DNA from: Clostridia bacterium
Lineage (GTDB): Bacteria > Bacillota > Clostridia > UMGS1883
DNA: 64,000 nt
Reading direction: 5' to 3'
Assembly (NCBI GenBank): GCA_045660765.1
Contig: JAZREK010000026.1
Coordinates: 360 to 64,359, forward strand
Shown here: piece after piece, positions 1,985 through 21,808 of the stretch
How positions within the stretch are numbered: the first letter of the stretch is position 1
Layout of the letters: each line of letters begins with the position of its first letter
Position numbers and translations under genes: made by a program
Notes under the pieces: generated by a model
What the model was told of the DNA's origin: nothing
Database searches by the model: none
The model's input: the letters and a program-made list of their open reading frames with translations, nothing else

Positions 1985-1985
1985 T

Positions 1986-2984: not shown

Positions 2985-3006
2985 ATTACACCTCCTAAGC
3001 TAAATT

Positions 3007-3930: not shown

Positions 3931-5307
3931 TTAAACACCTCCTGTGTTTTCGTCGAACAATTTTTCAAGCTTTGTCACCGGCATTGGTTTGTAGTAATAA
4001 TAACCCTGAAGCATATCACAACCAGCTCTTATTACCGCTTTTTCTTGTTCTTTTGTTTCAATTCCTTCACACAATGTCTTGAATCCAATATCCTTAGATG
4101 TACGAATAATGTTTTTCAAAATGATGAATCCAGTATCAGTTGTGGCATTTTGCGTTATTTTTTTATCAATTTTCACGGTTGTGATATCAAGATTCTGCAA
4201 ATCGCCAAAAGTTGTATAACCACTTCCAAAGTCATCGAGTAAAATTGATATTCCCTTTTCTTTAAGGATTGACAGATTTTTTATCATCTGTTTTCTGGCT
4301 TCACCCACTATATTTTTATCCTCAAGAATTTCTATTGCTACACAAGAAAAAGCAACTTCGTATTTTTGTGCAATTGCAATTATTTTTTCGGCAAACTCCG
4401 GTTCACACAATGTTGTTCTGGAGAAGTTTATGGTATATTTGTACTTTTCGCGTTGGAGTTTGTCGTTAGCAATCCATTTGCAATTTTTCTCAAAAATATA
4501 ATAATCAAACTTATCGTTAAGTCCTACTGAATTCAGTGCGGATAAAAAACTTCTGGGAGTAAGAACGCCGTCGCTTTCCGAATTAAGACGAGACAGAACC
4601 TCGGCACCTATTATTTTTTTGGTTCGCGCATCCAGGACTGGCTGATACTCGAGGAAAAAGCGGTTATTGTCAATTTCACGCTCTATATTGTTCTCGATTT
4701 TAATTTTTTTCTCAAGCTCTTTGCCGCTGCTGACATCCCACTGCTCATAGGATATTTTTTTATTTTTCGCAAGCATACATGCCTGTTTCGCACGTCCTAT
4801 TGCCTCGTCAAACGACACTTGTGTACCAAGTGCAAAATAAGAACCCGTTTTCAATCCAACAACACTCAGCGCATTATATTTCAAAAATATTTTATTAAGT
4901 TCTGATATACTTTCTTCAACGGTTTTGCGCGCAGTTTCAGGCTCCCATTTTGCGAGCACTACGAAATTTTTGTCTCCGTAAGAAGAAATCCAGCTTTCTT
5001 CCTCGGAAAAAGAATTAAGCAAAGTGCGTTTTATTTCGAAAAAAACTTCTGAAGTTTCTTCCTCGCTATACAAATGGCGGAAATTGTCCAAAGATACATT
5101 AATATACAAAACACATCTGTTTTCGCGCAATTTGCCTGACTTTTCAAACTGATTTTCCATTTTGCTTATGCTTGTAAATTCTTTCTCGTCATTGCCTGTT
5201 GCTGTTTTTACTCCACGCATAGCAAAATATATACCGATTGCAGTAATTAAAACAAAGCACAGTATGAAAATCGTTATAATTATGTACGGATATTCAAAAA
5301 GTTGCAT
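3931..5307 (-). CDS. Membrane-anchored c-di-GMP phosphodiesterase: TM, degenerate GGDEF-like domain, EAL domain
   Basis: N-terminal TM helix. The middle region has the GGDEF fold signature but a degenerate motif (SYGDKNF). The EAL domain has the EYQPV...EVLSR...DDFGSGYT...EGIET motifs. Confidence 0.75.
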   Translation of the reverse strand: MQLFEYPYIIITIFILCFVLITAIGIYFAMRGVKTATGNDEKEFTSISKMENQFEKSGKLRENRCVLYINVSLDNFRHLYSEEETSEVFFEIKRTLLNSFSEEESWISSYGDKNFVVLAKWEPETARKTVEESISELNKIFLKYNALSVVGLKTGSYFALGTQVSFDEAIGRAKQACMLAKNKKISYEQWDVSSGKELEKKIKIENNIEREIDNNRFFLEYQPVLDARTKKIIGAEVLSRLNSESDGVLTPRSFLSALNSVGLNDKFDYYIFEKNCKWIANDKLQREKYKYTINFSRTTLCEPEFAEKIIAIAQKYEVAFSCVAIEILEDKNIVGEARKQMIKNLSILKEKGISILLDDFGSGYTTFGDLQNLDITTVKIDKKITQNATTDTGFIILKNIIRTSKDIGFKTLCEGIETKEQEKAVIRAGCDMLQGYYYYKPMPVTKLEKLFDENTGGV

Positions 5308-5324
5308 ACATTAAGCTCCTAAAT

Positions 5325-6404
5325 TTATCTTTTTGAAAACGTTGGAAATTCCAATGTTCCACCTGATTGCATAAGGCCGATTTTATTCGCGGCATCTATG
5401 CACTTATTGCCGTCACGGCGAGCTCTTTTCTTGCGGTCAGGAATTTCCTTCATAAGAAAAGGTATCCCAAACGAAAGCATAGCTTTTACAAGGTCGCTCT
5501 TTTTAAGGCCTCTTCTCTTGTATTCTGCTAAAATTTCAAACATTGCGTAGTTAAGTGCCTCGTCAGTAAAAGCTTTGGTTTTTTTATTAACTGATTTCAG
5601 CCACTTGTAAAATTCGCAGAATTTATTTACATCTTTATTATCTCGGAAATAAACCCCTTTTATATAAAACGCTTCCTGCTCGCTATCCATTGGAGCAAGC
5701 AGTTCTGCCATATATTTCTTCTGAATTGCAACAACCTCTCTATACTGCTTTCCAAGTGTTGTTTCGGTAATTTGTTTGTCGTGCAGGCGGTATATCATAA
5801 GGTATTCAGACATAATTTCAATCTTTTGTCCAGAAAGAACAAACCTTGTCCAAAGCTCCATATCCTCGGTACAGGTGAAGGTTTTATCGTACCCAAGATT
5901 TCTTATTACGTCCGCCTTTGCAATAATCCCCGGATGAAGAATCGGGTTGGTAACTAAAAGCAACGCTTTGAGTGATTCATTATCACTTTTACCCCCGCAT
6001 CCACCCGAAGAGATAACTCCATTTTTAAGAGTCATAAATCTGCACGAAGACAATGCAACATCAGAATTTTCTTCCATAAAGGCGTATTGTTTTTCAAGCC
6101 TGTCAGGAAGGCAGATGTCATCGGCATCCATTCGTGCGATATACTTACCCTGTGCAAATGTCATCGCTCTGTTAAGTGATGAAGGAAGCCTTAAATTAAC
6201 CTCGTTGGGATATACTTTTACACGTGCATCTTTTAATGCGAATTTTTCAAGAATTTCTCCTGTTGAATCGGTGGAGCAATCGTTAATAACTATAAGTTCC
6301 CAATCGGTAAATCTTTGCTTTAAAACACTTTCAATTGCTTCTTCAAGATACTCTTCACCGTTATATACACTCATAATCAATGATATTTCAGGTGCTTTAT
6401 TCAT
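5325..6404 (-). CDS. Glycosyltransferase family 2
   Basis: ISLIMSVYNGEEYL...VINDCSTD...DADD motifs. Confidence 0.75.
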   Translation of the reverse strand: MNKAPEISLIMSVYNGEEYLEEAIESVLKQRFTDWELIVINDCSTDSTGEILEKFALKDARVKVYPNEVNLRLPSSLNRAMTFAQGKYIARMDADDICLPDRLEKQYAFMEENSDVALSSCRFMTLKNGVISSGGCGGKSDNESLKALLLVTNPILHPGIIAKADVIRNLGYDKTFTCTEDMELWTRFVLSGQKIEIMSEYLMIYRLHDKQITETTLGKQYREVVAIQKKYMAELLAPMDSEQEAFYIKGVYFRDNKDVNKFCEFYKWLKSVNKKTKAFTDEALNYAMFEILAEYKRRGLKKSDLVKAMLSFGIPFLMKEIPDRKKRARRDGNKCIDAANKIGLMQSGGTLEFPTFSKR

Positions 6405-7426
6405 CTTTTACCACCCCTTCTTATTTTTTTAATCTGCTTGCATAAAAACAAAAAATAAAATGTCAGGCGAATCATATTTCTCTTCATCAGGAAAAGACTG
6501 ATACGCGTTTTGATTGTTATATTTTCAAAATCAGCCTTCTTTATCTCTTCTTTATGCACGGATTCTGTTATAAGCTTTTTTAGTTCATTTATAGAGCCGA
6601 AATGGTTCCCTTCTGCGGCTGCCGCCAAAATAGCAAAGCACATAAAGAAGGAATATCGGGAAATCTGTTTGGAAAAATCGCCCGGCTTTTTTATGTCAAG
6701 ATTTCTCAATCCGATGATTGTATCGGCTATTTGTGTTATCTGTGCTGTTTTGAAATTCGTTGTAAGAGAATCGTTTCGTACAGTATACAGATATATAGGT
6801 TTTTTACTCATATAAACTGTATCTGAATCCAGATAGCAAGGAGTGGTACAGCTTACATCCTCGCCTTGTGAAATTTTAGTGTTTACAATAAGCTGATACT
6901 TTGTTGCAAGTTCTCTTTTTATAGCTTTTCCCCATAAAAAGTAGAAAAGGTTTTTCATATCCTTGTTAGACAGAAGATTCGGATAAATCTTTTTCTCCAT
7001 ATCTTGTTTAGTATATAATCCCTCATCAACAAGGTCTTCAACAACCTCGCCTACAACTCCGTCAATACAGCGTTTGTGCGAAAACGAAACGATATCGGGG
7101 CTGTGCTTTTTTATAATTTCGTATGCGCTTTCAAGTGCATCAGGCAAAACAGCGTCGTCTCCGTCAAGATGGAATACATAATCGCCGACAGCCTCCTTTA
7201 TTCCCGCCTGTCTTGCACTTACAAGGCCGCCATTCTCTTTATGAATGACCTTAATTCTTTTATCCTTTGCGGCGTATTCATCACAAATTGTGCCACAATT
7301 ATCCGGAGATCCGTCATCCACCAATATAAGCTCATAATCTGCAAAGGACTGTGCAAGCACACTGTCAATACATCTTGTGAGGTATTTTTCAATATTGTAT
7401 ATTGGAACGATTACTGAAAACAACAT
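6401..7426 (-). CDS. Glycosyltransferase family 2
   Basis: FSVIVPIYNIEKYL...LVDDGSPD...DGDD motifs; 4-nt overlap with the upstream gene. Confidence 0.75.
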   Translation of the reverse strand: MLFSVIVPIYNIEKYLTRCIDSVLAQSFADYELILVDDGSPDNCGTICDEYAAKDKRIKVIHKENGGLVSARQAGIKEAVGDYVFHLDGDDAVLPDALESAYEIIKKHSPDIVSFSHKRCIDGVVGEVVEDLVDEGLYTKQDMEKKIYPNLLSNKDMKNLFYFLWGKAIKRELATKYQLIVNTKISQGEDVSCTTPCYLDSDTVYMSKKPIYLYTVRNDSLTTNFKTAQITQIADTIIGLRNLDIKKPGDFSKQISRYSFFMCFAILAAAAEGNHFGSINELKKLITESVHKEEIKKADFENITIKTRISLFLMKRNMIRLTFYFLFLCKQIKKIRRGGKR

Positions 7427-7437
7427 ACTATTAACTC

Positions 7438-8502
7438 CTATTTTGCTCTGATTTCCACCATGATTTTTTGCATAAAGTAGAGCTTGTATTTCATAGCAAA
7501 TGCAAATGCAGCCTGCTTTTTAGGCAATTTATGCCACGGATATGAATTTAAAGTTTTTGTGATTTTTTCGCTTGCACAAATTTTTTCAAGTCTTTCACGA
7601 AGTGCTCTATATCCTGTCTTTTGTTCGCGCGCATACATGATTTCCTGCGAACATAAAATTCTGCCGTATCCTTGAATAAGTCTGTCCAGATATAGCGCAT
7701 ACTCTTCTTTTTTTAGCACTTCTTTGATATGTTCTTCAATCTCAGATAAAAAGATTAAGACTTTTTCAAAACGGTCACTTTTGTAGGATTTAGAAAATGA
7801 TTCATCATTTCTTCTGTAACGATAGAATGTGCCGGGAATTCCCACCGCTTTTTTTGTATACTTGATGTAGTCTACCATAAAGATGGCATCCTCGCTCATC
7901 ACTTTGCGTTCGGACAAAAATCTGACTTTTGCATCATTAAGCAAAGAGCGTCTGAAGATATTTTTGCATACACTAACTCCATAGCGACTATCATCAGGTT
8001 CGTCGGGTAATGCACCAACTACTCCTAAAAGAAGCGGTTTTATTTCTGTATTCTCGAAAATCGTTTCTTTGTCAAAATAATTTTTCTCGGTGTATTCGCC
8101 TTCTTTACTGAAGGTATTTCCACCCACAAAACTGATTCCGGACATAACAAGATCGGCATCATTCTTATTGGCTGCATCATAAAGTTTTTCATACATTTGG
8201 GGAGCAACAAAATCGTCCGAATCGACAAATCCCACATACTCTCCGCTCGAAGCATCAACACCGCAATTTCTTGCGATACCTTGTCCCTCGTTAATTTTAT
8301 GTATAACCTTTATACGCTCATCATTTTTTGCAATTTCATCACACAAAAGAGCGCACTCCTCTTTGGAGCCATCGTCAATTATAATGATTTCAATTTCCTC
8401 AAGTGTCTGTGCGGTTAAGGAATCAATACATTGTTTTAGGTATTTTTCTGTATTATATACGGGTACGACAATGCTCACTTTTGGTGATGTCATTCTTTTC
8501 AC
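7438..8502 (-). CDS. Glycosyltransferase family 2
   Basis: VSIVVPVYNTEKYL...IIDDGS...DSDD motifs. Confidence 0.75.
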   Translation of the reverse strand: MKRMTSPKVSIVVPVYNTEKYLKQCIDSLTAQTLEEIEIIIIDDGSKEECALLCDEIAKNDERIKVIHKINEGQGIARNCGVDASSGEYVGFVDSDDFVAPQMYEKLYDAANKNDADLVMSGISFVGGNTFSKEGEYTEKNYFDKETIFENTEIKPLLLGVVGALPDEPDDSRYGVSVCKNIFRRSLLNDAKVRFLSERKVMSEDAIFMVDYIKYTKKAVGIPGTFYRYRRNDESFSKSYKSDRFEKVLIFLSEIEEHIKEVLKKEEYALYLDRLIQGYGRILCSQEIMYAREQKTGYRALRERLEKICASEKITKTLNSYPWHKLPKKQAAFAFAMKYKLYFMQKIMVEIRAK

Positions 8503-9710
8503 CTCTTATTTAAAAGGTCTTGGTATTTATCCATAAGAATATCACAGTAGTCTCCAACTTCGATAATCTTATCTCTCATTTCTTCGCAGTTCTTCTTTAT
8601 TGAACTGTAGAATTCTTCGTCTTCAAAGCACTTTTTGATTGCCTGTGCTATTGCCTCGGGAGTAGGTTCTTTAATGAGCAGTCCTGTTTTACCATCCTCA
8701 ACAAGTTCCGCCATACCGCCACTGTTCATTGTTAATACAGGAACGCCAAATGAATGGGTTTCGAGTATGTTCAAGGGGCAGTTTTCATACCACACAGAAG
8801 GCAGTATCATTACTCGTGCATTTGCAATCAAGGAAATAAGTTCATCTCCGGTAAGGAAACCTTTCATCGTAACATTCGGAATGTTTTTCAGACATTCATC
8901 GTCCGGGCCTGTTCCTGCTATAACAAAAGAATAATCGGGAAGCATTTTTGCCGCTTCGGACAAAATATCAATGCCTTTTTCCTTTGAAAGTCTGCTCGCA
9001 AAAGCAATATAGGGTTTTTCTGTAGCCACCTTTTCTGGAATAGGCTTCTTCTCAATAAAATTATGTATTGTGAAAGTCTTTCCCGAATAAACGTCAGAAG
9101 CACTTAAAAGCTTGCTTTCTAAAAATCTGCTCGGGCAGACATACAAATCTACTTTTTTGTAAGTTTTAAGTGTAGTATACAACTTGGCCTCAATTGCACC
9201 TATAATGCTTTTAATCTTTGAGCCGTGAATACAATTGTACTTAGCACAATTAAATTTCGAGCCGTTTATACAGCGTTCGCAAGGCTTTGTTTCGTCAAAA
9301 CTGTATAAAAGATGATTAGGACAAATCATCTGATAGTCGTGAACAGTCTGTACAAGGGGAATATTTCTCTTCTTGACAGCATAAATCACCGATGGTGTAA
9401 GCTGAAAATTGATATTATTCATATGAACTATATCAGGCTTGAAATCATCTAAAACTTTGCTGATTTTTCTATACGCTTCCACCGAATAGATTATCTTGAA
9501 CGGATAGAGAAATCTTGCCAAACCCTTTGAGTGAAAATCCATATTACCTGTATATAAACCGAGAGAATTTCCCACTGTATTATTTTCATCATACATGCCG
9601 AAGTATTCAACTTCGTGACCTTTGGCCTTGAGTTCTTCCGCAAGGTTCAACATATATGTTTCGCAACCGCCTCTTGGATAAAGGAACTTATTCACCATTA
9701 ATATTTTCAT
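8499..9710 (-). CDS. Glycosyltransferase family 4 (GT-B)
   Basis: MKILMVNKFLYPRGG N-terminus and a C-terminal GT1/GT4 E-x7-E region. Confidence 0.7.
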   Translation of the reverse strand: MKILMVNKFLYPRGGCETYMLNLAEELKAKGHEVEYFGMYDENNTVGNSLGLYTGNMDFHSKGLARFLYPFKIIYSVEAYRKISKVLDDFKPDIVHMNNINFQLTPSVIYAVKKRNIPLVQTVHDYQMICPNHLLYSFDETKPCERCINGSKFNCAKYNCIHGSKIKSIIGAIEAKLYTTLKTYKKVDLYVCPSRFLESKLLSASDVYSGKTFTIHNFIEKKPIPEKVATEKPYIAFASRLSKEKGIDILSEAAKMLPDYSFVIAGTGPDDECLKNIPNVTMKGFLTGDELISLIANARVMILPSVWYENCPLNILETHSFGVPVLTMNSGGMAELVEDGKTGLLIKEPTPEAIAQAIKKCFEDEEFYSSIKKNCEEMRDKIIEVGDYCDILMDKYQDLLNKR

Positions 9711-11011
9711 AATACTGATTCTCCCTCCGTGTTTTTATTGACATCGGAAACATGCCCAAACAGTCTCATCTCAGTGTTTCGCACACGCTCATCAAATCCC
9801 TGACCTATCATTATAATGGCAAGTACTGTTGTGAGCAATGGGAAGTTTATGGTGTTATCGGTAGATGATACTATGACAAGATACAGACTCAGGGCAAAGG
9901 TTACAATAGCATTATCAATCTTCCCTTTTGCTCCGAAGTAGCACACTCGGAGTATTGTCATAGAAAACAGCCATAATATATATCCCCAGAAGCCCAGGTC
10001 AATAAAATACTGCAGGAAATCATTATGAACTGCCGAAACACCCACGCTCATATTCGTACTCAACTGATATGACAAAAACCCGATACCATTTCCCAAAAAT
10101 TCAGGTGTAAACTCATAAAATTTATCTACAGCGTTGTAGATTACAACGCGTCCGCTTGTATCAATGCCTATCTTTTCAAGCATTGAAAACACATCCATTT
10201 TTATAATCCCCACATAACCAATCAGAAGAATCATCAGAATAACAGTGAAAATTATAACAAGGCGCGTTGCCGTATCTTTTTTGAATTTCGCAACAAATTT
10301 CAAAAACCAACCAAATGCAAGCGAAACCGCAATAGCAATTATACCGATTCTCTTAAACGCCGCAAGAAAACAAAATGACGTTAGTCCGAGCAATATCAAA
10401 AACGCTATATTCTTTTTTGGTTTTAGAAGCATAAAAACCAGATACGCTCCCAAGCAGAATGCAAGTTCATGAATTTCTGCCTGAACGATAACATCGCCGG
10501 TTTTTGCCGCAAACGTCACGATGAGAGTAATAAATTCTGAAAAGAAGACTCCTATTCCGTTTTGGGCAATAACAGTAACAATCATTAACATATTGGAAAT
10601 AAGGATTGCAATAAGGTTGTACCATATGCCCTTTTCCCCAAAAACATATAAAAAAGCAACTGCAGCCAGTGTGAATGAGAGCATATTGTTATACACAAAC
10701 GCACCGGAGAGTCCTCGTGCAATAACACTTGCATCAACCTGCCCTGCAAACCATATAAACAAGGATGCTAAAATCGTTACGATAAGAGGCATACAATATA
10801 CCAGTGTTGATTTAAGCGATGATGCGCCTCTTGCAATATTCGGCTTATATAAAAAAGTCACAAAAGCCGAAGCAAAAAGTAGAAGGGCAAATGCGTGACG
10901 GAATGTAACGAAAATCCCAAGGTTGATTACCTCGGTAAGAAAATAGTACATAAGTACCGCGACAATCATAAAATAAATTTTTCCGATTGTTTTTACAAAG
11001 TTGCTTTCCAT
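9707..11011 (-). CDS. wzy: O-antigen ligase/polymerase family membrane protein (Wzy-like)
   Basis: ~11 TM helices; Wzy_C-like loop motif AVHNDFLQYFIDLG. Confidence 0.65.
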   Translation of the reverse strand: MESNFVKTIGKIYFMIVAVLMYYFLTEVINLGIFVTFRHAFALLLFASAFVTFLYKPNIARGASSLKSTLVYCMPLIVTILASLFIWFAGQVDASVIARGLSGAFVYNNMLSFTLAAVAFLYVFGEKGIWYNLIAILISNMLMIVTVIAQNGIGVFFSEFITLIVTFAAKTGDVIVQAEIHELAFCLGAYLVFMLLKPKKNIAFLILLGLTSFCFLAAFKRIGIIAIAVSLAFGWFLKFVAKFKKDTATRLVIIFTVILMILLIGYVGIIKMDVFSMLEKIGIDTSGRVVIYNAVDKFYEFTPEFLGNGIGFLSYQLSTNMSVGVSAVHNDFLQYFIDLGFWGYILWLFSMTILRVCYFGAKGKIDNAIVTFALSLYLVIVSSTDNTINFPLLTTVLAIIMIGQGFDERVRNTEMRLFGHVSDVNKNTEGESVL

Positions 11012-11041
11012 ACGTCTCTTGCCCTCCTTTCAGGTTTTAAA

Positions 11042-12916
11042 TTATTTATCCAATTCTGATGTGTATGCTTTCTTGTTTTTAATAGCTTCTGAAAGCAGTT
11101 TTCTTGCAGTCTTATTTTCTTTGAATGTTTCTGCTATACCTACTTTATATTCCAACTTCACATCACGGTATTCTTCGCGGTCATCTATTCTTAAACCGAA
11201 AAGTCTTATAATGTCTTCAACAGTAATATAGTCAACATCTTTCGCCAAAATTACAAAGCTACCGTTTCCGTTATAGATAAACTCTGTGTTAGTCTTTCCG
11301 AAAGCTTCTTTCAGATATGTTGTAAACATTTTAATTATATCGTCGCCAACTTTTCTTCCCTGCTCTGTATTTATTGTCACAAGGTTTGCCAGATCAACCA
11401 TACAGTATACCGTTCCGTCATCAAGGAGTTTTTTATCCATAGATTTTAAATACTTATCAAAATATGCACGGTTACTAAGTTCGGTAAGATGATCTGTGTA
11501 GAAAATATAATTTATAATATCACCAAGTCTTCCCACGAGAATTGCTCCGCCACAGCAGAGAATTACAAGGAAGAAAAATGCAATCAACGTATAAAGAGTT
11601 ACGTTTATACTCGGTTTAACAGATGCAGAAGATAAAACAGAAATATAACTTGCACCAAGATATTCATTATACTCGTCGTTCGTCTTCATTGTTGTGCTGT
11701 AAAGAACGGAAAGTTCTGAAATAAGTGCTTCTATCTCGCCTTCTATTTCTGTTTGCAATGCAGCATAGTTTTCGTTATGAATCTGTGTACAGGTTTGTCC
11801 TGATGAAAGACATTCTCCATTTTCACATGCCCCTGTGCACTTTTCAAAAGTATCAATAACGTATCTGCAATATGCAGTATCTATAATAGAATGTTCCTTC
11901 TTTTCGTTGTGGTCTCTCCAGCCGTAAATAAGTTCGTCATATGTTACAGTCTGATCTCCGGCAGTAAAATACCCCTCTTCAGATTCAACAAGATTGCGTT
12001 CGTGCACGTTGTCAAGAATATACTCATGAGTGATATTTGTATTGCCTGACTCTCTCATTTTTTCTACATAAGCATCAATAACAGAAAGTGTGTCGTCTAC
12101 TATACTTTCTTCCTTTGCGTTTAAGATATTGTTGCTGTCGATTCTTGTATTATAGTCAGAAATCAAGATTGTTTTATTCTTGGTAATCTGATACTTATAA
12201 ATTTTGGAAAAGAGAGATGAGAGCTTTACACTTCTTAAATAATTGAATTCGTCTGCCAAGTCGTTAAACGATACGCCTGTGCTTGTGGCTCTGAAATAAG
12301 GATTCTGACTTGTTCTCTGATACAATGTGTTCAGCGTTTCGTCGATTCCTGTATCAATCAGTTCCACCATTTCAATGTAATCGTAATTACTGTTATCAAT
12401 GTTTTCTATAACATTTTTTGCAGGAGCAACGTTCACATATTTCTGACTGTATTCTGCAAAATATACGTCCAATGTTTCGTCAAGAATGGTTCTGGCAAAC
12501 TCTGCGCCCTCATTATTTCTGGCAGTGAATGAGACGATATATGTACTTGGCTCATACACGTATTCTTCGCCTTCTTCAAGTTTTGCCGATTTCTGTGCCA
12601 TCTTATCTTCATCGGGAAGCGGAATTATTGTTATTCTTGATATAAGGCTATCAACAGAATAAACACCTGTAAGCCCCATTCTGTCAACAACTTTTGACAT
12701 TACTGCTGATGATTTAATTTCATTAACATCCAGCTTTGAACCTGTGGGAGTAAGTCCCTGCTCTGCCATAGGATCGTTGTAGTGTATAACTTCGGATGCA
12801 ACATAAGTATTTGATTTTTTAAGGTTCAAATTTATTGCATATGTGGCTAAAACACAAAAAACTACAATGATTGGCAGAAGCTTTTTTAAATATCTCATAA
12901 TATGAAAATTCTTCAT
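11042..12916 (-). CDS. Wzz/polysaccharide co-polymerase-like protein (TM, ~400-aa extracytoplasmic domain, TM) fused to a C-terminal degenerate GGDEF domain
   Basis: N-terminus resembles Wzz/CpsC (short cytoplasmic tail, TM, large polar domain, second TM LYTLIAFFFLVILCCGGAILVG). C-terminus has the GGDEF fold (DHLTELSNRAYF...VDLANLVTIN...GDDIIKM) but NGSF in place of GG[DE]EF. Confidence 0.55.
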   Translation of the reverse strand: MKNFHIMRYLKKLLPIIVVFCVLATYAINLNLKKSNTYVASEVIHYNDPMAEQGLTPTGSKLDVNEIKSSAVMSKVVDRMGLTGVYSVDSLISRITIIPLPDEDKMAQKSAKLEEGEEYVYEPSTYIVSFTARNNEGAEFARTILDETLDVYFAEYSQKYVNVAPAKNVIENIDNSNYDYIEMVELIDTGIDETLNTLYQRTSQNPYFRATSTGVSFNDLADEFNYLRSVKLSSLFSKIYKYQITKNKTILISDYNTRIDSNNILNAKEESIVDDTLSVIDAYVEKMRESGNTNITHEYILDNVHERNLVESEEGYFTAGDQTVTYDELIYGWRDHNEKKEHSIIDTAYCRYVIDTFEKCTGACENGECLSSGQTCTQIHNENYAALQTEIEGEIEALISELSVLYSTTMKTNDEYNEYLGASYISVLSSASVKPSINVTLYTLIAFFFLVILCCGGAILVGRLGDIINYIFYTDHLTELSNRAYFDKYLKSMDKKLLDDGTVYCMVDLANLVTINTEQGRKVGDDIIKMFTTYLKEAFGKTNTEFIYNGNGSFVILAKDVDYITVEDIIRLFGLRIDDREEYRDVKLEYKVGIAETFKENKTARKLLSEAIKNKKAYTSELDK

Positions 12917-12943
12917 TTTTTACCCTCCTGTAATATTTTGTGT

Positions 12944-14302
12944 TTATTCTTTAGGAAACTTTTTTGAAACTGCAAAGAGCAGTGCTGCAAGATAAGCAAA
13001 AACGGCAAACAGAATTATTGATTTCAGTTCGCTCAATAATGAAGTGCCCGAAATGCTTACAGCAATACACTGATTCATTATGTAATTTGAATATTCTCTG
13101 CCCGCCTTAATTGCCTCAACCGTAAAATCTTCTATACTCTTGTCAATTGATAGAATAAGTTCGTCCGCCTGCGCAGTTACAGATGCGTCTGCTGTTGCAT
13201 TCTCCATTTTGCTGATAACAAGATTGTTGTCCATTATTTCCTTCTCGCTTGTCGCAACATCGTCACTAAAAGAAGTTGCCATAACGGAAAGTTCATCAAT
13301 ACCAACCTTGGTTCGTCCCATATAATACTTTCCGCTTTCATCCCAAGTGGGAACGAGCACCACTCTTGTCATTTCTTCGGAATACATCTGTATCGCCATA
13401 TTACAAAGATTGTAAGAAGCAGCATTCTTCATTCTTTCAAAATCTGTAATCTTGTTCTGATAAGAAAGCCTGTCGATATAGTTTGCTTTGTTTTTTGCAA
13501 TACCGTGCTGCAAAACCAAAGATCTAAGGTTCTGTTCGATCTGAGTTTCTCTGAACTGATATACCTTGCCTGCTATCGAATTAAATGTAGCATTGTTTTC
13601 AGTAACAAAGCTGGGACCCTTTTCTGCCATTCCATATAAGTAATTCAAAACACAGTTGGTTTCTTTGTTAAGATAATTAACAATATCCATATATTCCATT
13701 GTGGAATAGTCTGGTTTTTCTTCGTTGTTTGTAAGAGTGAAATTGTCTGTATATTTCTCTATGTAGTACTCTTTATAGGCACTTGCAATAAGAGCAATTA
13801 CGTTTTCAGCATCCAGGTGATCGGTATGTTTTGAGGCGTGGTATTCAACAACAAATTCTGTAGAAATATGATAATTGGACTTGTCGTTTACATCACCCTG
13901 AACATAAGGATAAACACACAAACAGTTTTTAAGCTGTTTTACCGTTACATCTTCAAAAGCACCCATTTCGATTGCTTTTGCCACAACATCATCACAGATA
14001 ATTTCCGTCATATTATATCTTGTTCCGTTAGAATTCTGTGCCTGCGAAGCCTCTGAATAATTAAGAGCTATCACCGCCTGCACTGAATGTTTTGCCTTCA
14101 TATGATTAAAAATGGCAAACACACCTGAAAGAACAAAAACAAAAATTAAAATCCATGCCTTTATACAACGTGTGCTTTTAAATATCTTGAAAAATTCACT
14201 TCTGGTGACATTTTTCGAGCGAATATAGATTGTGAAGGCAGATATCAGCAACAATACACCTGCTACCACAATCGGCAATTTTTGTAAAAGTGAGGAATAC
14301 AT
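12944..14302 (-). CDS. Wzz/PCP-like membrane protein, paralog of the extracytoplasmic domain of 11042..12916; no GGDEF
   Basis: TM helices at both ends; the central domain is colinear with that of the neighbouring gene (e.g. VVDRMGL / VVAKAIEMGA; NPYFRATSTGVSFNDL / KGPSFVTENNATFNSI). Confidence 0.45.
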   Translation of the reverse strand: MYSSLLQKLPIVVAGVLLLISAFTIYIRSKNVTRSEFFKIFKSTRCIKAWILIFVFVLSGVFAIFNHMKAKHSVQAVIALNYSEASQAQNSNGTRYNMTEIICDDVVAKAIEMGAFEDVTVKQLKNCLCVYPYVQGDVNDKSNYHISTEFVVEYHASKHTDHLDAENVIALIASAYKEYYIEKYTDNFTLTNNEEKPDYSTMEYMDIVNYLNKETNCVLNYLYGMAEKGPSFVTENNATFNSIAGKVYQFRETQIEQNLRSLVLQHGIAKNKANYIDRLSYQNKITDFERMKNAASYNLCNMAIQMYSEEMTRVVLVPTWDESGKYYMGRTKVGIDELSVMATSFSDDVATSEKEIMDNNLVISKMENATADASVTAQADELILSIDKSIEDFTVEAIKAGREYSNYIMNQCIAVSISGTSLLSELKSIILFAVFAYLAALLFAVSKKFPKE

Positions 14303-14324
14303 CTATCATTCACTCCTTTCAAAT

Positions 14325-15296
14325 TTAAAACTTATTTATATCAACAACTACGATTTCCGGTTTGTTGTTAATTCTCAAAAGGTTTTTATTTTCAATACCT
14401 GAATTTACAATCAAAGGTCTACCCTGAACTTCATATCTTCCGCTGACATAATGTCCGCTTCTTTCCGGGAAAAGCCCTCCTCCGCGAGTATACAGTGGTC
14501 CGATAAGCGGAACTTTGATTATTCCGCCATGAGTGTCGCCTGCAAGCATCAGGTCGCCCCATGTATCGGGAGTGTATTCTTCAAAAACCATAGGTTCGTG
14601 GATTGCTGTGATTTTTAAATTATTTTCATTTGTAAAAATGAATTCGTCAAAGCTTTTTCCGCCGTAAGACCAGAATGATGACGGATTTGAAGTAAGAACG
14701 CCATAAACGTCTACCTTTGTAGCTCCGATCGTTAAAGTATCAAATTCGTTTTTAAGAACCTTTACCCCTGCTTTTTCAATTTTTTCATCGAAAGAATTAG
14801 TGATTTCCAAAAGCTTCTGGGGATCTCTGTTTTCGTTGTTAAAACCGAATTTTTCGTCAAGAGAATCTTGTGTCAAAGGATTGTTATAAAACTTTTTAAC
14901 CTCGTTATTTCCGTATATGTAATATGACGGAGCAACCTTTGAAAGAGTTGAGCACAAATTAATAACTCTTTCATCAGACTTCGCATTTGAATCAATCATA
15001 TCACCGGTATATATGATTAAGTCGGGTTTTAATTTTTTAACCCTGTCTATGAGTTTTTTATTTTCTTTTCCGTATGATGAATTGTGCAAATCAGAAATAT
15101 GAACAACTCGAATCTTGTTATGAACCTTAAGACTGCTTACACTGTAGAATTTTTCTTTAAAATTTCGGTTTCCGACATAGTTGAATCCGATAACTGCAAT
15201 CGTTGCGGCTATCAACACAAAAACCAGACTTATTAAAAAGAGTTTTGCAACTCTTAACTTTTTCTTGGATTTTGCACTAAGTGTGTATCCCTTCAT
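14325..15296 (-). CDS. Membrane-anchored calcineurin-like metallophosphoesterase
   Basis: N-terminal TM; MPP motifs VHISDLH, YTGDMID, GNNE, GDTHGG. Confidence 0.7.
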   Translation of the reverse strand: MKGYTLSAKSKKKLRVAKLFLISLVFVLIAATIAVIGFNYVGNRNFKEKFYSVSSLKVHNKIRVVHISDLHNSSYGKENKKLIDRVKKLKPDLIIYTGDMIDSNAKSDERVINLCSTLSKVAPSYYIYGNNEVKKFYNNPLTQDSLDEKFGFNNENRDPQKLLEITNSFDEKIEKAGVKVLKNEFDTLTIGATKVDVYGVLTSNPSSFWSYGGKSFDEFIFTNENNLKITAIHEPMVFEEYTPDTWGDLMLAGDTHGGIIKVPLIGPLYTRGGGLFPERSGHYVSGRYEVQGRPLIVNSGIENKNLLRINNKPEIVVVDINKF

Positions 15297-15315
15297 ATAA
15301 TTAACTACCTTTCGT

Positions 15316-16446
15316 TTAATTTCTTATAACCTTTTCATACAGGTTGTATGTAGCAGTCGCAACATCTTTCCAGTTGTACTTATTGAGTATGAATTCGTCT
15401 GCTCCATTCTTTAGGTCATTGACAACGCTTTCGTCATCGCACATCATCTGCAATTTGTCTGCAAGATCTTTTATATCACTCTTTTTAAAATGCATAGCCT
15501 TATCTTCGGTTACCAGGGTGTTTTCAGGAATATCCGAACACAAGACCGCATTTCCGTATGCAAGCGCCTCGAGAAGGCTCAACGACATTCCTTCGATATC
15601 CGATGGAAGTGTAACCAGGTAAGCATTGCTGTATATTTCGGTTAGGACATCGCCCGATATGAATCCCGTAAAAATAATGTTGGGATTTCCCTCTGCCTTT
15701 TCCTTAAGCATTTTCACATAATCATCTGTATCACTCGTGTCTCCTGCTATAACAAGCTTCTTATCTGTTTTTATACTGTTATATGCGTCTATAAGGTAGT
15801 GAACACCCTTTTCAGCGGTAAGGCGCGACACCATACAAATGTAGTCTCCACCCTTAATACCGTACAAATTCTTAATTTTGTCCGCTTCTTTCTTTTCGGG
15901 CTTTTCTATTCCGTTATGAATAAGCACCGTTTCACGATTATAAGTGTTTTTAAAATATTCGCGGGCACTTTCGCTTAAAACAATAATTTCATCAGCACAT
16001 TTCACCATAACACGTTCGCCGAATTTTATATATTTAGAAGCGAATCCTTTTCCCCATTTTTCTCTTTGCCAGTCAAGTCCATGAACTGTCGCTACGCAGT
16101 GCTTTCCAAACATTTTAGGAATCCACATTGCAGCGCAGGGACCTTCTGCATGAAAATGTACTACATCGTATTTTGAAAAAGCCGTGCAAATTGCCGCCGT
16201 AAACGAAGCAATCATCGCCGAAAGACCACGTGCATTGATTGTCCACGCCTTCTTCAGTGTTACATTACGATATTTTTTATTTTCAACGGTTCCGACATAT
16301 TCATTTTCCACTTTATCCGCAGAACGGTTATAACAGGTAACATTCGCTCCCATTTCTGCCAACAAAGGGCACAATGAAGTAAGCACATTTTCTATTCCGC
16401 CACGTCTTGACGGGATAACTTTATGCCCAAGCATTGCAACTTTCAT
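15316..16446 (-). CDS. Glycosyltransferase family 4
   Basis: GT-B fold; N-terminal GHKVIPSRRGGIE. Confidence 0.7.
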   Translation of the reverse strand: MKVAMLGHKVIPSRRGGIENVLTSLCPLLAEMGANVTCYNRSADKVENEYVGTVENKKYRNVTLKKAWTINARGLSAMIASFTAAICTAFSKYDVVHFHAEGPCAAMWIPKMFGKHCVATVHGLDWQREKWGKGFASKYIKFGERVMVKCADEIIVLSESAREYFKNTYNRETVLIHNGIEKPEKKEADKIKNLYGIKGGDYICMVSRLTAEKGVHYLIDAYNSIKTDKKLVIAGDTSDTDDYVKMLKEKAEGNPNIIFTGFISGDVLTEIYSNAYLVTLPSDIEGMSLSLLEALAYGNAVLCSDIPENTLVTEDKAMHFKKSDIKDLADKLQMMCDDESVVNDLKNGADEFILNKYNWKDVATATYNLYEKVIRN

Positions 16447-16472
16447 AGCTACATCTCCATTCGTAAAATCGG

Positions 16473-17153
16473 TTATCTGCCTGTTGCGCTGAGCATAACA
16501 ACAGGTGTTTTAAGCATAATAAGTAAATCTCCGGGGAAAGTTCTGTTCTGTATGTAATCAAGATCCATTTCCACCCATTCCTCGAAAGGAACATCGTTTC
16601 TGTTTTTGTGAATCTGCCATGTACAGGTAATTCCCGGGGTAACAAGAAGACGAAGTTTCTGATAATCGGTATAATACTCAACCTCTCTCGGAAGCGGAGG
16701 TCTGGGGCCGACCAAGGTCATATCCCCTTTGAAAACATTGAAGAACTGCATAAGTTCATCAAGCGATAATTTGCGAAGGATTTTTCCAACTCTTGTTATT
16801 CTGGGGTCTTCCTTGATTTTGAAAACGGGACCTTCCATTTCATTTTGTTCTTTAAGTTGATCTAAAAGCTTTTCTGCATCAGGTCGCATAGTACGGAATT
16901 TATACATATAAAACTCTTTCCCGTGACGGCCAACTCTTTTTTGTTTAAAGAACGGGCCTGCACTCGGATCGTCAATGCAGATTACAATAGCAATTATAAT
17001 CATCAGCGGAAGAAATCCCAGCAGAATCAATGTCGCAAAAAAGATGTCAAAGAGTCTTTTTTTGCGCCAATAAGACAAATAAGATTTTTCAATTAACGCT
17101 TCAAGCTTTAATCTGGTTTTCTCGTCTACTTTTTCTTTTTCAATATAAGGCAT
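16473..17153 (-). CDS. Undecaprenyl-phosphate sugar phosphotransferase (small 'Bac_transf' initiating PGT, WcaJ/PglC-like)
   Basis: KRLFDIFFATLILL...PFFKQKRVGRHGKEFYMYKFRTM...DELMQFFNVFKGDMTLVGPRP motifs. Confidence 0.8.
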   Translation of the reverse strand: MPYIEKEKVDEKTRLKLEALIEKSYLSYWRKKRLFDIFFATLILLGFLPLMIIIAIVICIDDPSAGPFFKQKRVGRHGKEFYMYKFRTMRPDAEKLLDQLKEQNEMEGPVFKIKEDPRITRVGKILRKLSLDELMQFFNVFKGDMTLVGPRPPLPREVEYYTDYQKLRLLVTPGITCTWQIHKNRNDVPFEEWVEMDLDYIQNRTFPGDLLIMLKTPVVMLSATGR

Positions 17154-17155
17154 TT

Positions 17156-18019
17156 TTATCCTTCTTTCAAGTCATTTAATAGTGTGTCAAACTCGACTTT
17201 TCTCCATGGGGAAAAATAGAATTTACTAAAACTTTTTCTACTGCCGTCAAAAAGTTTTTCTCCAATTTCCGAGTAACCCGGATGAAATCCGAGTTCAACA
17301 TCTTTACTATGTTTCTCAGCAATTTTTAAATATTTCGGGAGAATTTTGCTTATTTTCCTTTTATCCATCTTTCCCGAAAACAGTACTCCCATAAAATAGG
17401 AATACGGTATTTGCGATTTTTCAAGTTCTTTCCTGTTCACAAAAGCCAGAAATTTCAAAAGCCATTGTTTAACAAGTCCCACCGGCGCATAAGAAAGATA
17501 CAGCGAGGGGGTTTTTATATATGGCGTAATAGGTTCTGCCGGAATACGCAAAGAGTCAACTTGAAGTTTTTCCTCTTTTATTACGTCTAACAGCGTTTTG
17601 AAAACAAGTGGTATCATATGTACATGCTGATGAGAGTCTATGAAAATCCCTGTATTTTCTCCAAGCTGTTCTTTCCAGAATTTAACCTGATTTTGAATTT
17701 CCGTAAAGAGTTGCCTACGCAGTTCTTCTTTTTTTTGTAATAGCGAGAGAAAAAGAAGAAGTGTGAAAGAGTACTTGAAACATCCGTTATCGTCCACAAG
17801 CAAACTAATCTCTTTGGCATCTGAAAGAGGATGCCCCTCAACCAGATTAAGATGCAAAGAAAGCTTTACTTCTGTTTTGTTTAATCGATTTGTAAAATTT
17901 GCAATTTCACCATTTGGCAAAACACTTATCTTATTTAATGCTCCGTTTTGGAGACATTCTTCTATGCGGTCATTACTTTCTTTAGACATACCGTAGTCAT
18001 CCGCACAAAAATATATCAT
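17156..18019 (-). CDS. ChbG/YdjC-family carbohydrate deacetylase
   Basis: MIYFCADDYGMS N-terminus (YdjC D-D-x-G motif); HxH later in the sequence. Confidence 0.6.
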   Translation of the reverse strand: MIYFCADDYGMSKESNDRIEECLQNGALNKISVLPNGEIANFTNRLNKTEVKLSLHLNLVEGHPLSDAKEISLLVDDNGCFKYSFTLLLFLSLLQKKEELRRQLFTEIQNQVKFWKEQLGENTGIFIDSHQHVHMIPLVFKTLLDVIKEEKLQVDSLRIPAEPITPYIKTPSLYLSYAPVGLVKQWLLKFLAFVNRKELEKSQIPYSYFMGVLFSGKMDKRKISKILPKYLKIAEKHSKDVELGFHPGYSEIGEKLFDGSRKSFSKFYFSPWRKVEFDTLLNDLKEG

Positions 18020-18024
18020 ATTAC

Positions 18025-19557
18025 TTACCTCTTATCTCCCAACTTTATAACAATTGTATTGTCAACTACAGTGATTGAATCTTTCTCCGGCCAAACACCC
18101 ATAGAGTCAATATCTGCAATCTCAATTATTCCTTGTTTATCTTTATGGGTAAGGAATTTGTATTTTTTTCCGCAGTAGTCATTCAACGCGCTGCACAAAA
18201 CACTTTGTCCCACAATTTCATCATCAGCACGCAATATGTAACCGTCTGTCGCACCTGTGAGATCAGGCGGAAGATTCACGCTGTAATCTTCGCTGTCGTC
18301 AACCGCGCCAACAACTGCTATACTGTCACATTTATCTGCGCCATCGGTCTGTTCAATTCTGTCAGCGATTCGGATAAGCATACCGTAAGACTTTTCATAC
18401 GCCATATTAAGTTTATGATAACCTACATTGGCGATAATAACATAATTGAAAATAAGTACTGATGCAATACCGAGTATTGTCCATGATTTTGCTGCATTAG
18501 CCTTTTCATACTGCAATATAAGGAATAAATAATATACCAAATATCCCATTTTCATAAGATTATGATAATCTATACCGCTGTTTATGAAAGTAAGAACGCT
18601 TGCTCCAATCGGTAAAAAAACAACATAAGCAATAAGAAGCAGAATTTTTGAAATGTTCAATCTGTTTTTTATTATATCTGCCAGATAGAAAATGATAGTT
18701 GCGGCAAAAACAATACAGTTAATTATGGAAAACGAATTAACACCATTTGAAAAGTCAAAGAAATACGATGTGAATAATTTCTTTATCCAATAAAGCGATT
18801 CCAATATATTAAGCCCATCAAGAGATGTTGCATTTCCAAACCCCTGATAATCAAGAAGCTGTGTATTTGTAACAAGGCGGATAACTGTAAGAAGCAGATA
18901 ATAAAGTGCCATTCCGCAAGCGCCTGTCAGTAAGAACTTAAGGCTTTTGCAAATCGACTGCTTTGTATTTTCCTTGTAGATAAGCTCAAGTATAAGATGC
19001 AAAAGCAAAAGCATTATGGTAACGGTTATGTATGCCTGATAAATCCCTGTTGAAAAAGTGATAAGCATTGCAGCAATTATGTAGTTTGGCTTATCTTTTG
19101 TAATAAGCATTGCTGCGATGCAAGAAAGAAGAAAAGAAAGCGCATATCCATCCGCTACGTAGTTATACATCATAACAGATGTTACCGTTGGAAATGTCGC
19201 AACTAACGCACCTATAAGTGCCGCAGTTATATTTTTTCTAACATCAAGCATTTTACAGATACATACTGCACCAAATGCATGGAATATAATTGCAAGGAGA
19301 CCTGCAACCCAAGGCAAATCATAAAATGAACTCGGCGTGCACGCTACAGGAAGGAACCATCTTCCCATTGCAATCATATTTTGTGAATCATATCTGAAAA
19401 CAAGGCTGTCCCAATTAGGAATCCAGCTTGTAATCTTGTACATATGAGCGACAAATCCCATGATGAGTGCAGAGAAAAAACAAATTTTCCACTGTGGTAA
19501 TATATTCTTTTTGATTTTTCCAATTATTTGTTCAGGCAAAGTTACCACTCCAACCAC
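18025..19557 (-). CDS. Polytopic membrane protein (~12 TM) with C-terminal extracytoplasmic domain; putative GT-C-type glycosyltransferase (GtrC-like role)
   Basis: Hydrophobic profile and soluble C-terminal ~110 aa; lies in the same locus as gtrA and gtrB-like genes. The family assignment is an inference. Confidence 0.4.
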   Translation of the reverse strand: MVGVVTLPEQIIGKIKKNILPQWKICFFSALIMGFVAHMYKITSWIPNWDSLVFRYDSQNMIAMGRWFLPVACTPSSFYDLPWVAGLLAIIFHAFGAVCICKMLDVRKNITAALIGALVATFPTVTSVMMYNYVADGYALSFLLSCIAAMLITKDKPNYIIAAMLITFSTGIYQAYITVTIMLLLLHLILELIYKENTKQSICKSLKFLLTGACGMALYYLLLTVIRLVTNTQLLDYQGFGNATSLDGLNILESLYWIKKLFTSYFFDFSNGVNSFSIINCIVFAATIIFYLADIIKNRLNISKILLLIAYVVFLPIGASVLTFINSGIDYHNLMKMGYLVYYLFLILQYEKANAAKSWTILGIASVLIFNYVIIANVGYHKLNMAYEKSYGMLIRIADRIEQTDGADKCDSIAVVGAVDDSEDYSVNLPPDLTGATDGYILRADDEIVGQSVLCSALNDYCGKKYKFLTHKDKQGIIEIADIDSMGVWPEKDSITVVDNTIVIKLGDKR

Positions 19558-21781: not shown

Positions 21782-21808
21782 CTTCCTTTCACAGATTTTT
21801 TAGTGTAA

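Follow-up and report, generated by a model that had tools for sequence, protein, structure and literature searches.

Polysaccharide co-polymerases (PCPs) carry N- and C-terminal transmembrane (TM) segments that flank a large extracytoplasmic domain and leave both termini in the cytoplasm; a Pro-rich segment lies proximal to TM2 and a Gly-rich segment inside it (PMC7809406). Literature on Wzx/Wzy pathways describes control of the PCP via tyrosine phosphorylation or pseudokinase scaffolds. Post-translational control of polysaccharides by c-di-GMP is covered in reviews for synthase-type systems only (cellulose, alginate, Pel and Listeria Pss). Here we describe a Wzx/Wzy-type exopolysaccharide (EPS) operon from an uncultured gut Clostridia lineage, found in a 64,000-nucleotide stretch of DNA (the window), in which a 624-aa protein is very likely to be a PCP with a catalytically dead GGDEF domain. 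A description of such a PCP/Wzz-GGDEF fusion was not found in the open-access papers searched.

In the PCP-2a protein Wzc (E. coli K30 Wzc; PDB 7nhr and 9r62), the cytoplasmic module is a P-loop BY-kinase with a Tyr cluster, whereas that of the 624-aa protein is a degenerate GGDEF domain with a palm-like cyclase fold. The two proteins share about 10-13% sequence identity. Furthermore, the host here is of Gram-positive type, so there is no Wza/OPX partner, and the Pro-rich motif preceding TM2 is absent. The PCP-2b systems (CpsC/CpsD/CpsB and CapA/CapB) resemble the present locus in combining a Firmicute PCP of a Wzy-dependent locus with a gene for a metal-dependent phosphoesterase. However, the BY-kinase represented by CpsD or CapB was found neither in the scanned window ORFs nor in related loci, and a PCP-2b/CpsCD assignment was rejected for this reason. 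In addition, the CpsB-type phosphatase is a cytoplasmic PHP enzyme, whereas the phosphoesterase here is calcineurin-like, TM-anchored and apparently extracytoplasmic, and CpsC systems have one PCP in contrast to two PCP paralogs here. A further likeness is to EpsV-EcpK of Myxococcus xanthus, where a phosphorylation-independent PCP has a cytoplasmic partner of enzyme fold that lacks catalytic residues and is a proposed scaffold (PMC12004946). EcpK, by contrast, has a P-loop kinase fold and is a separate protein in another phylum, whereas the GGDEF domain here is fused to the PCP.

A membrane-associated, catalytically dead GGDEF domain inside an EPS operon is shared with PelD, PssE, BcsE and, reportedly, YdaK. 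The last is also said to bind c-di-GMP via an RxxD I-site motif. As with these degenerate-GGDEF receptor systems, the EPS operon lies among c-di-GMP signalling genes, though only in the clade of the window. PelD, PssE and BcsE bind c-di-GMP via an RxxD I-site (PMC8461298, PMC4125290), which in PssE precedes the signature motif by five residues (PMC4125290); this site is missing in the 624-aa protein. PelD and PssE have also been described with synthase-type glycosyltransferase complexes rather than a PCP/Wzy module. Domain placement analogous to that found here occurs in Alg44, the alginate 'co-polymerase' (PMC8461298), a membrane protein and extracytoplasmic polymerisation helper with a c-di-GMP-binding cytoplasmic PilZ domain. 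Unlike the 624-aa protein, Alg44 is MFP-like and synthase-dependent, and it has neither a PCP fold nor a GGDEF domain.

Results

Topology and predicted PCP fold of the 624-aa protein

The gene and the parts of its product are as follows.
11042..12916, (-) strand: long PCP-like protein with a degenerate GGDEF domain, 624 aa (ORF with ATG start; Pfam GGDEF 48 bits; predicted PCP fold)
12824..12880, (-) strand: TM1, residues 13-31, preceded by a K/R-rich cytoplasmic N-tail (hydropathy, translation)
11600..12823, (-) strand: extracytoplasmic domain of predicted PCP fold, residues 32-439, with an alpha/beta base and a long helical hairpin
11531..11599, (-) strand: TM2, residues 440-462, Gly-rich (hydropathy)
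11519..11533, (-) strand: juxtamembrane GRLGD, residues 462-466
11084..11500, (-) strand: cytoplasmic degenerate GGDEF domain, residues 473-611 (Pfam; PDB sequence matches; Foldseek matches)
11255..11275, (-) strand: YNGNGSF, replacing the xGG[DE]EF signature (alignment)

An exact database look-up found no record identical to this protein. Its hydrophobic segments at residues ~13-31 and ~440-462 are separated by a loop of ~405 aa, in agreement with the Wzz/CpsC topology proposed in the initial annotation, in which two TMs surround the extracytoplasmic domain and a C-terminal domain follows TM2. The latter, having a nucleotide fold, must be cytoplasmic. In this clade, the extracytoplasmic domain contains a four-Cys cluster (C360, C364, C369 and C376).

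Profile and fold searches differ in what they return for the N-terminal part. It has no match to Pfam Wzz (PF02706, E <= 1) or to NCBIfam models, and PDB sequence searches with either the single sequence or the family profile retrieved GGDEF domains only and no PCP. The initial annotation had made its PCP assignment dependent on a Wzz profile score; this protein itself has none, and that result is outweighed by structure and by weak, in-register Wzz matches in 30 of 114 relatives. These PF02706 matches, at residues ~5-67 of 20/76 long and 10/38 short proteins, are sub-threshold (14-19 bits in individually listed members against a cut-off of 25.5; best E 1e-6). A full-length AF2 model (pLDDT 67.8) yielded mainly GGDEF matches and also aligned to Wzc. 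When residues 1-470 were modelled from a more diverse alignment (pLDDT 79, pTM 0.62), all eight Foldseek matches at E <= 1e-3 were to Wzc. The TM-scores were low (0.17-0.28), which is to be expected when long helical hairpins differ in pose. The modelled domain has a membrane-proximal alpha/beta base and an elongated helical domain, as in solved PCP structures. TM2 is Gly-rich, with a mean of 3.2 Gly in the family and CCGGAILVG in this protein, and the Pro-rich segment before TM2 is absent (mean of 0.29 Pro in 29 residues among 56 family members, 40 of which have none). Fold searches and family-level evidence thus point to a PCP, and an unrelated extracytoplasmic domain (helical sensor or coiled coil) whose likeness to PCPs is confined to fold searches is improbable.

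A GGDEF fold without catalytic motif or canonical I-site

The initial assignment of the C-terminus to the GGDEF fold was borne out by Pfam GGDEF (PF00990), which matches residues 473-611 with 48.2 bits (E 1.4e-12; cut-off 23.8), and by Foldseek, where this domain of the AF2 model gave target-normalised TM-scores of 0.6-0.7 and 3-4 A rmsd to solved GGDEF domains. The family profile also reaches PDB GGDEF domains with E down to 1e-13. In an alignment to the T. maritima diguanylate cyclase (DGC) 4urs, with coordinates checked, YNGNGSF lines up with YGGDEF, and GKTN with the I-site RRSD. The protein has therefore lost the two acidic catalytic residues as well as the canonical RxxD, as had been noted from the sequence. 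RxxD positions are likewise not conserved in an alignment of 73 family representatives, and the analogy to PssE drawn in the initial annotation is not supported in that form, the PssE RxxD site being absent from both protein and family.

This loss bears on the name under which the family is filed. Sources call homologs 'diguanylate cyclase', the only label given to the family in databases, and the Pfam GGDEF score exceeds its cut-off; on such grounds the protein would be a membrane DGC that produces c-di-GMP under a large extracellular sensor. However, the acidic residues of GG[DE]EF are replaced by NGNGSF here and by the family consensus Y-N-G-x-G-Q/S-F, and D508, the equivalent of the metal-binding Asp, is a feature of this clade alone, its place being taken by R, Q or N in most other family members. 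Moreover, all NCBIfam DGC equivalog models score far below their cut-offs. With its motifs lost, an active DGC was rejected, and we regard this identity as extremely improbable.

Other positions of the domain are retained. Equivalents of the guanine-contacting Asn and Asp are conserved in 55/73 (N516) and 58/73 (D525) family representatives, and Arg residues R521 and R605 are conserved in the family alignment. A juxtamembrane GRxxD motif, present in 57/73 representatives, resembles RxxD/RxGD motifs and is a candidate non-canonical nucleotide site. The domain is also kept in orthologs at 78.7% identity, compared with about 80% for the whole protein.

The operon and its c-di-GMP context

The other features considered here are the following.
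9707..11011, (-) strand: Wzy-type polymerase (Wzy_C/O-antigen ligase family), multi-TM (Pfam 31.9 bits, cut-off 31.7)
12944..14302, (-) strand: short PCP-like paralog, 452 aa, without a cytoplasmic domain, in all cases directly upstream of the long gene (sequence and profile comparison; synteny)
14325..15296, (-) strand: membrane-anchored calcineurin-like metallophosphoesterase (YaeI/LpxG-like) (Pfam, NCBIfam; conserved neighbour)
16473..17153, (-) strand: initiating phosphoglycosyl transferase (Bac_transf) (Pfam 216 bits)
20273..21781, (-) strand: multi-TM protein, 502 aa, no Pfam match, candidate flippase by inference
3931..5307, (-) strand: TM-anchored degenerate-GGDEF/EAL protein inside the operon (Pfam EAL 197 bits; GGDEF 20 bits, below cut-off)
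22217..23068, (-) strand: stand-alone EAL phosphodiesterase (PDE), first gene after the riboswitch (Pfam 194 bits)
23118..23174, (-) strand: hairpin and U-tract, expression platform (fold -27.5 kcal/mol, z -3.9)
23165..23248, (-) strand: c-di-GMP-I riboswitch aptamer (Rfam RF01051, 57 bits, cut-off 35)
23258..23286, (-) strand: sigma-70-like promoter TTGACA-17-TATAAT, 12/12
23293..25584, (-) strand: membrane DGC, 763 aa, intact GGDEF (RMGGDEF), upstream of the riboswitch (Pfam 71 bits)

The EAL, DDIGSG, EGVE and QG motifs are all found in the product of 22217..23068. The 5' arm of the expression-platform hairpin overlaps the 3' end of the aptamer, as judged by the fold and the aptamer alignment, and an orthologous riboswitch (locus L085) matches RF01051 with 62 bits. 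An ortholog of the 763-aa DGC shows a weak dCache_1 match.

A BY-kinase-type (CpsD/Wzc-like) P-loop kinase was not found by Pfam among operon ORFs of >=150 aa (1367..25584) or in 15 further window ORFs, a set that leaves aside some 18 ORFs at 32-64 kb and any of <150 aa. Precomputed Pfam annotations of related loci contain none either. The proposal that a cytoplasmic GGDEF module sits where a BY-kinase is usual agrees with these results.

The short and long proteins share 23% identity over 335 aa (BLASTP, E 2e-8), and profile-profile comparison by hhalign aligns them from TM1 to TM2 over 393 columns with 99.4% probability (E 9e-22), confirming the neighbouring gene as a paralog that lacks the GGDEF domain. 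A profile search intended to widen the sequence diversity matched mostly orthologs of the short paralog, a sign of co-conservation. We infer that the catalytic domain of the metallophosphoesterase is extracytoplasmic. This enzyme is linked to the PCP in a fusion protein, P0196, in which a PCP and degenerate GGDEF domain are followed by a TM and the metallophosphoesterase; the extra TM would be needed for the metallophosphoesterase to lie outside.

Distribution and variants of the family

The family comprises 654 clusters at 50% identity, and a relative is encoded in 241 GTDB species genomes. Among the 80 loci listed by a search for related loci with a 12-sequence alignment, all were orthologs of 70-84% identity. 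The whole operon keeps its synteny in 45/45 species-representative MAGs whose flanks are complete, with Wzy_C adjacent in each. Distant genomic contexts were taken from contigs encoding ~30%-identical relatives. In all seven loci of such GGDEF-bearing relatives, the Wzy, the short paralog and the long PCP with degenerate GGDEF are kept, and the metallophosphoesterase follows in six, namely all in which the contig continues beyond the long gene. As the pair of short and long PCPs co-occurs with Wzy and metallophosphoesterase even at ~30% identity, it is ancient.

Variation is seen at the cytoplasmic module. Some family members are PCP-EAL fusions, in which an intact-looking EAL domain takes the position of the degenerate GGDEF. 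One GGDEF-less member has a T2SSE-like ATPase as its adjacent cytoplasmic partner, suggesting that the module is interchangeable; Wzy adjoins in this locus as in all other distant ones. The distant members examined lie in compact loci without c-di-GMP genes or riboswitch, the latter being found neither in locus L081 nor in L041 and L053, whose flanks are truncated. A c-di-GMP context is therefore a trait of the window's clade in particular.

Discussion

We ask what a catalytically dead cyclase domain might do on a PCP. Our best explanation, given an even chance, is a composite one: in a Wzx/Wzy-type EPS operon, the gene at 11042..12916 would supply the 'long' member of a PCP module made of two paralogs, and its pseudo-cyclase domain would fill the place of the BY-kinase (or pseudokinase) of PCP-2 systems. 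There, it may serve as the cytoplasmic module through which the PCP/Wzy complex is controlled, either in its oligomeric state or in its activity. The most likely mode would be a response to a guanine nucleotide, either c-di-GMP at a non-canonical site or GTP/c-di-GMP at a remnant substrate pocket; alternatively, the domain may dock the DGC and PDEs encoded in the locus. In this clade, a c-di-GMP-I riboswitch, probably an ON switch, would add a second layer by gating transcription of the operon, with feedback from two operon-encoded PDEs.

That the domain responds to a nucleotide at all is a matter on which we are evenly divided, and c-di-GMP as that nucleotide is rather less probable. A c-di-GMP receptor function is nevertheless a plausible hypothesis, with indirect support from its context: the riboswitch, two EAL proteins and the DGC here, and PCP-EAL fusions elsewhere. 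Receptors of this kind are known in a canonical form, and activation of EPS machines by degenerate GGDEF receptors is documented (PMC4125290, PMC8461298). A PssE/PelD-like receptor, in which binding switches on polymerisation or export, would suit an operon containing a c-di-GMP-I riboswitch and two EAL proteins with a DGC upstream. Against it stands the lack, here and across the family, of the RxxD I-site on which all characterised degenerate-GGDEF c-di-GMP receptors are reported to rely, and for this lack a canonical I-site receptor was rejected; the known examples also serve synthase-type rather than Wzy/PCP systems. We consider it unlikely.

The domain might instead be a pure scaffold, a pseudoenzyme that binds no nucleotide and provides protein-protein contacts only, for instance contacts through which the PCP dimerises or oligomerises, or to which the priming transferase or glycosyltransferases dock. 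EcpK with its PCP EpsV (PMC12004946) is a pseudokinase precedent, and the loss of catalytic motif and I-site, together with that of the metal-binding Asp in most of the family, agrees with such a role. So do the absence of c-di-GMP genes from the loci of most distant relatives and the seeming interchangeability of the module with a T2SSE-like ATPase. By contrast, equivalents of the guanine-contacting Asn and Asp remain conserved along with R521 and R605, the occurrence in its place, in other family members, of an EAL domain that looks intact favours cyclic-di-GMP chemistry over generic scaffolding, and the window's clade places the gene in a c-di-GMP regulon. On balance, a pure scaffold is possible yet doubtful.

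A broader reading, which joins the nucleotide-responsive pseudo-cyclase to its conserved neighbours, is put forward tentatively. These operons may encode a large and unrecognised class of Gram-positive Wzy machines with a PCP pair, guanine-nucleotide gating and an ecto-phosphoesterase. A heteromeric PCP pair (with degenerate GGDEF or EAL) and the extracellular metallophosphoesterase would replace the triad of PCP, BY-kinase and phosphatase. A guanine nucleotide, of greatest interest c-di-GMP at a site other than the I-site, for example GRxxD or the remnant pocket, would directly gate repeat-unit polymerisation or chain length, and processing or release of the undecaprenyl-diphosphate-linked polymer would fall to the ecto-phosphoesterase. 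If true, Wzx/Wzy pathways would have their first point of post-translational control by c-di-GMP.

The finding re-annotates a sizeable family. Its 'diguanylate cyclase' labels inflate DGC counts in Clostridia and hide a role in EPS biosynthesis. A cultured relative, Lachnospiraceae bacterium MD329, carries the family and makes these hypotheses testable. A PCP with a conserved pseudo-cyclase would place a second-messenger-type module at the polymerisation/chain-length step, in hundreds of gut Clostridia lineages and alongside variants of the same family with EAL domains or an ATPase partner. The paralog and the ecto-metallophosphoesterase, which are conserved along with it, suggest that EPS assembly in Gram-positive bacteria involves additional steps, and the fusion itself suggests that polymer assembly can be controlled in a way not described before.

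Domain composition and predicted fold of the long co-polymerase

Two paralogous genes for polysaccharide co-polymerase (PCP)-like proteins lie beside a phosphoesterase gene:

11042..12916, minus strand: long PCP with a degenerate GGDEF domain (ATG start, 624 aa)
12944..14302, minus strand: short PCP paralog (BLASTP, hhalign)
14325..15296, minus strand: calcineurin-like metallophosphoesterase (YaeI/LpxG-like), anchored by a transmembrane segment (TM); conserved neighbor of the PCP pair

We found that the initial annotation had accurately described the product of the long gene, with two TMs and a GGDEF domain whose signature motif is replaced and which has no evident RxxD. Hydropathy analysis with translated boundaries placed the TMs at about residues 13-31 and 440-462, with a loop of ~405 aa between them. 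Pfam recognized GGDEF at residues 473-611 (48.2 bits; cut-off 23.8), and every NCBIfam diguanylate-cyclase equivalog scored far under its cut-off. In the phmmer alignment with T. maritima cyclase 4urs, FIYNGNGSF faces ARYGGDEF and GKTN faces the I-site RRSD, and aligning the family profile with DgcR revealed the same replacements. These alignments thus indicate that both acidic signature residues and the canonical RxxD are gone.

On its own sequence alone, the long protein does not qualify as a PCP. Its N-terminal part gave no Pfam Wzz match at E <= 1, and PDB sequence searches with the protein or the family profile returned GGDEF domains only and no PCP. Even a full-length AF2 model of mediocre confidence (pLDDT 67.8), made from an alignment of 43 close homologs, matched Wzc along its length (Foldseek E 4e-5). 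A model of residues 1-470, based on a 66-sequence alignment including more distant relatives, reached a pLDDT of 79.2 and a pTM of 0.62, with the order TM, strand, helices, strand, helix, strand, long helices, strands, TM. All 8 of its Foldseek matches at E <= 1e-3 were Wzc, and the top 13 were Wzc or WzzE. Weak Wzz (PF02706) matches occur in distant family members (20/76 long and 10/38 short proteins), always spanning residues ~5-67 against profile positions ~7-76 in the members individually listed. Of the sequence hallmarks of PCPs, a Gly-rich TM2 and a Pro-rich pre-TM2 segment (PMC7809406), the former was found in the family and the latter was looked for there and absent. We conclude that the window protein is a divergent PCP-fold protein, its nearest structural match being the ectodomain of the PCP-2a protein Wzc.

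Proteins of the window's clade share four invariant ectodomain cysteines, CTGACxxxECxxxxxTC, at residues 360-376 (11789..11839, minus strand), a region of low pLDDT in the model. This insertion is also present in the family representatives P0121 and P0123 and absent from other members. The cluster may form a disulfide knot or bind a metal.

The paralogous pair and its conserved neighborhood

The claim that the adjoining gene is a paralog was borne out by BLASTP between the two proteins (E 2e-8) and by hhalign between the two families (99.4% probability, E 9e-22, 393 columns from TM1 to TM2). The duplication is old: in every locus examined, including those of ~30%-identical relatives, one short-type gene immediately precedes one long-type gene, and the two often overlap. 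The entire ~20-gene operon is syntenic in 45/45 species-representative MAGs with full flanks, labeled Clostridia, Acutalibacteraceae, Oscillospiraceae, Congzhengia, Ructibacterium or Faecousia; those with a source in the record title came from ruminant, deer or human (Hadza) gut. The cultured isolate Lachnospiraceae bacterium MD329 belongs to the distant clade, where the locus is compact and encodes an acyltransferase, two GT4 enzymes, (an acetyltransferase), Wzy, the short PCP, the long PCP with its degenerate GGDEF domain, a membrane-anchored calcineurin-like metallophosphoesterase and a priming transferase.

Neither the scanned window ORFs (the whole operon plus 15 ORFs elsewhere) nor the Pfam annotations of related loci contained a BY-kinase-type (CpsD/Wzc-like) protein. 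A 502-aa protein with about 12 TMs and no Pfam match, kept in all syntenic loci, is the likely candidate for the operon's flippase:

20273..21781, minus strand: candidate flippase

The distant clade's compact loci contain no obvious flippase. The phosphoesterase is joined to the PCP in P0196 (917 aa), a single chain of PCP with degenerate GGDEF domain, extra TM and metallophosphoesterase. This fusion links the phosphoesterase to the PCP in function and would place its catalytic domain outside the cell, where, speculatively, it may process or release a lipid-diphosphate-linked polymer.

The degenerate GGDEF domain and its replacements

A phmmer search with residues 1-465 against 1.84 billion representatives yielded 654 clusters at E <= 1e-3, and Pfam GGDEF was present in 67/76 long representatives. 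A column-by-column motif census of 73 long representatives revealed the family signature Y-N-G-x-G-Q/S-F and conserved arginines at positions 521 and 605; the metal-binding Asp is gone throughout except in the window's clade (D508), and RxxD at the I-site position is not conserved. The Asn and Asp that contact guanine in active cyclases (PleD N335 and D344) have retained counterparts, N516 in 55/73 and D525 in 58/73. Right after TM2, 57/73 carry a G-R-x-x-D juxtamembrane motif, GRLGD in the window protein. Ortholog conservation of the domain is 78.7%, against 72-86% for other domains. Judged from sequence, the domain is maintained by selection rather than decaying, and it cannot act as a cyclase. 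The initial annotation had likened it to the c-di-GMP receptor PssE. RxxD at the I-site defines PelD/PssE-type receptors (PMC4125290, PMC8461298), and we rejected this class for a domain that lacks the motif.

Other cytoplasmic modules occur in the family. In P0257 (764 aa) and P0242 (739 aa), the same PCP-like N-terminal part is followed right after TM2 by an intact-looking EAL domain (EAL, DDFGT, EGIED and QGY motifs) replacing the degenerate GGDEF. P0271, a long-type PCP lacking GGDEF, is followed in locus L087 by an overlapping gene (10297..11187, plus strand) for a 296-aa T2SSE/PilT-like ATPase, which looks like an alternative cytoplasmic partner; no metallophosphoesterase gene lies beside P0271 there. 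Separately, long-type proteins of the P0391-P0400 sub-clade (795-881 aa) exceed P0143 in length by about 170-260 aa; in P0394, the one member read (L083, 10001..12643, plus strand), a ~270-aa low-complexity K/S/N-rich tail follows the domain (residues ~600-880).

c-di-GMP elements of the operon

Upstream of the operon in the window's clade lie:

23286..23258, minus strand: perfect sigma-70-like promoter
23165..23248, minus strand: c-di-GMP-I riboswitch aptamer (57 bits)
23293..25584, minus strand: membrane diguanylate cyclase (763 aa, intact RMGGDEF), just upstream of the operon

The aptamer recurs in the orthologous locus L085 (229-312, 62 bits). Next comes a strong, terminator-like hairpin (-27.5 kcal/mol, z -3.9) with its U-tract; promoter, aptamer and hairpin occupy 23118..23290, minus strand. 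The aptamer's 3' strand and the hairpin's 5' arm overlap, which suggests ligand-dependent anti-termination, an ON switch. The first gene past the riboswitch encodes an EAL phosphodiesterase with intact motifs, and the operon also encodes a TM-anchored degenerate-GGDEF/EAL protein. The 763-aa cyclase has no RxxD I-site (YGQKVYRMGGDEF) and an extracytoplasmic domain between two TMs, with a weak dCache_1 match in an ortholog; its sequence suggests a sensor cyclase that would escape product inhibition. The ~1.07 kb between its gene and an NlpC/P60 gene (25585..26654) contain neither an ORF of at least 150 aa nor an Rfam match at the gathering threshold.

Apart from one response-regulator/HD-domain gene, seen where L083 ends, compact loci of the distant clade contained no c-di-GMP genes, and L081, the one such locus searched, had no riboswitch. 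A universal c-di-GMP role is therefore disfavored.

Discussion

Compared with the closest known systems, the window protein shares its architecture with Wzc but differs in cytoplasmic fold, and shares a pathway with CpsC/CpsD but misses the kinase. PelD, PssE, BcsE and YdaK have the same domain type, with a different binding site in a different kind of machine. The logic of a dead-enzyme partner is shared with EpsV-EcpK, a PCP with a pseudokinase scaffold (PMC12004946). Homologs bear only the database names "diguanylate cyclase" or "GGDEF domain-containing protein", and full-text searches of open-access literature turned up no account of a PCP-GGDEF fusion.

The degenerate domain may stand in for the BY-kinase of PCP-2 systems or the EpsV-EcpK pseudokinase scaffold, and would control how the polymerization complex oligomerizes or how active it is. 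It might do so by sensing a nucleotide, binding being possible because half of the nucleotide pocket is kept and the juxtamembrane motif resembles RxxD; we give an even chance to sensing of any guanine nucleotide and regard c-di-GMP as a somewhat doubtful ligand. The domain might also recruit the cyclase and phosphodiesterases of the locus for local signaling. A purely scaffolding role seems unlikely to us. In the window's clade, the riboswitch would add a transcriptional layer of c-di-GMP control.

There is good support for a PCP module of two paralogs acting with Wzy, in which the window protein is the long subunit and has a dead GGDEF domain as its cytoplasmic end. The structural and genomic case for this fusion is solid, and a signaling function of its GGDEF domain is an attractive, directly testable hypothesis.
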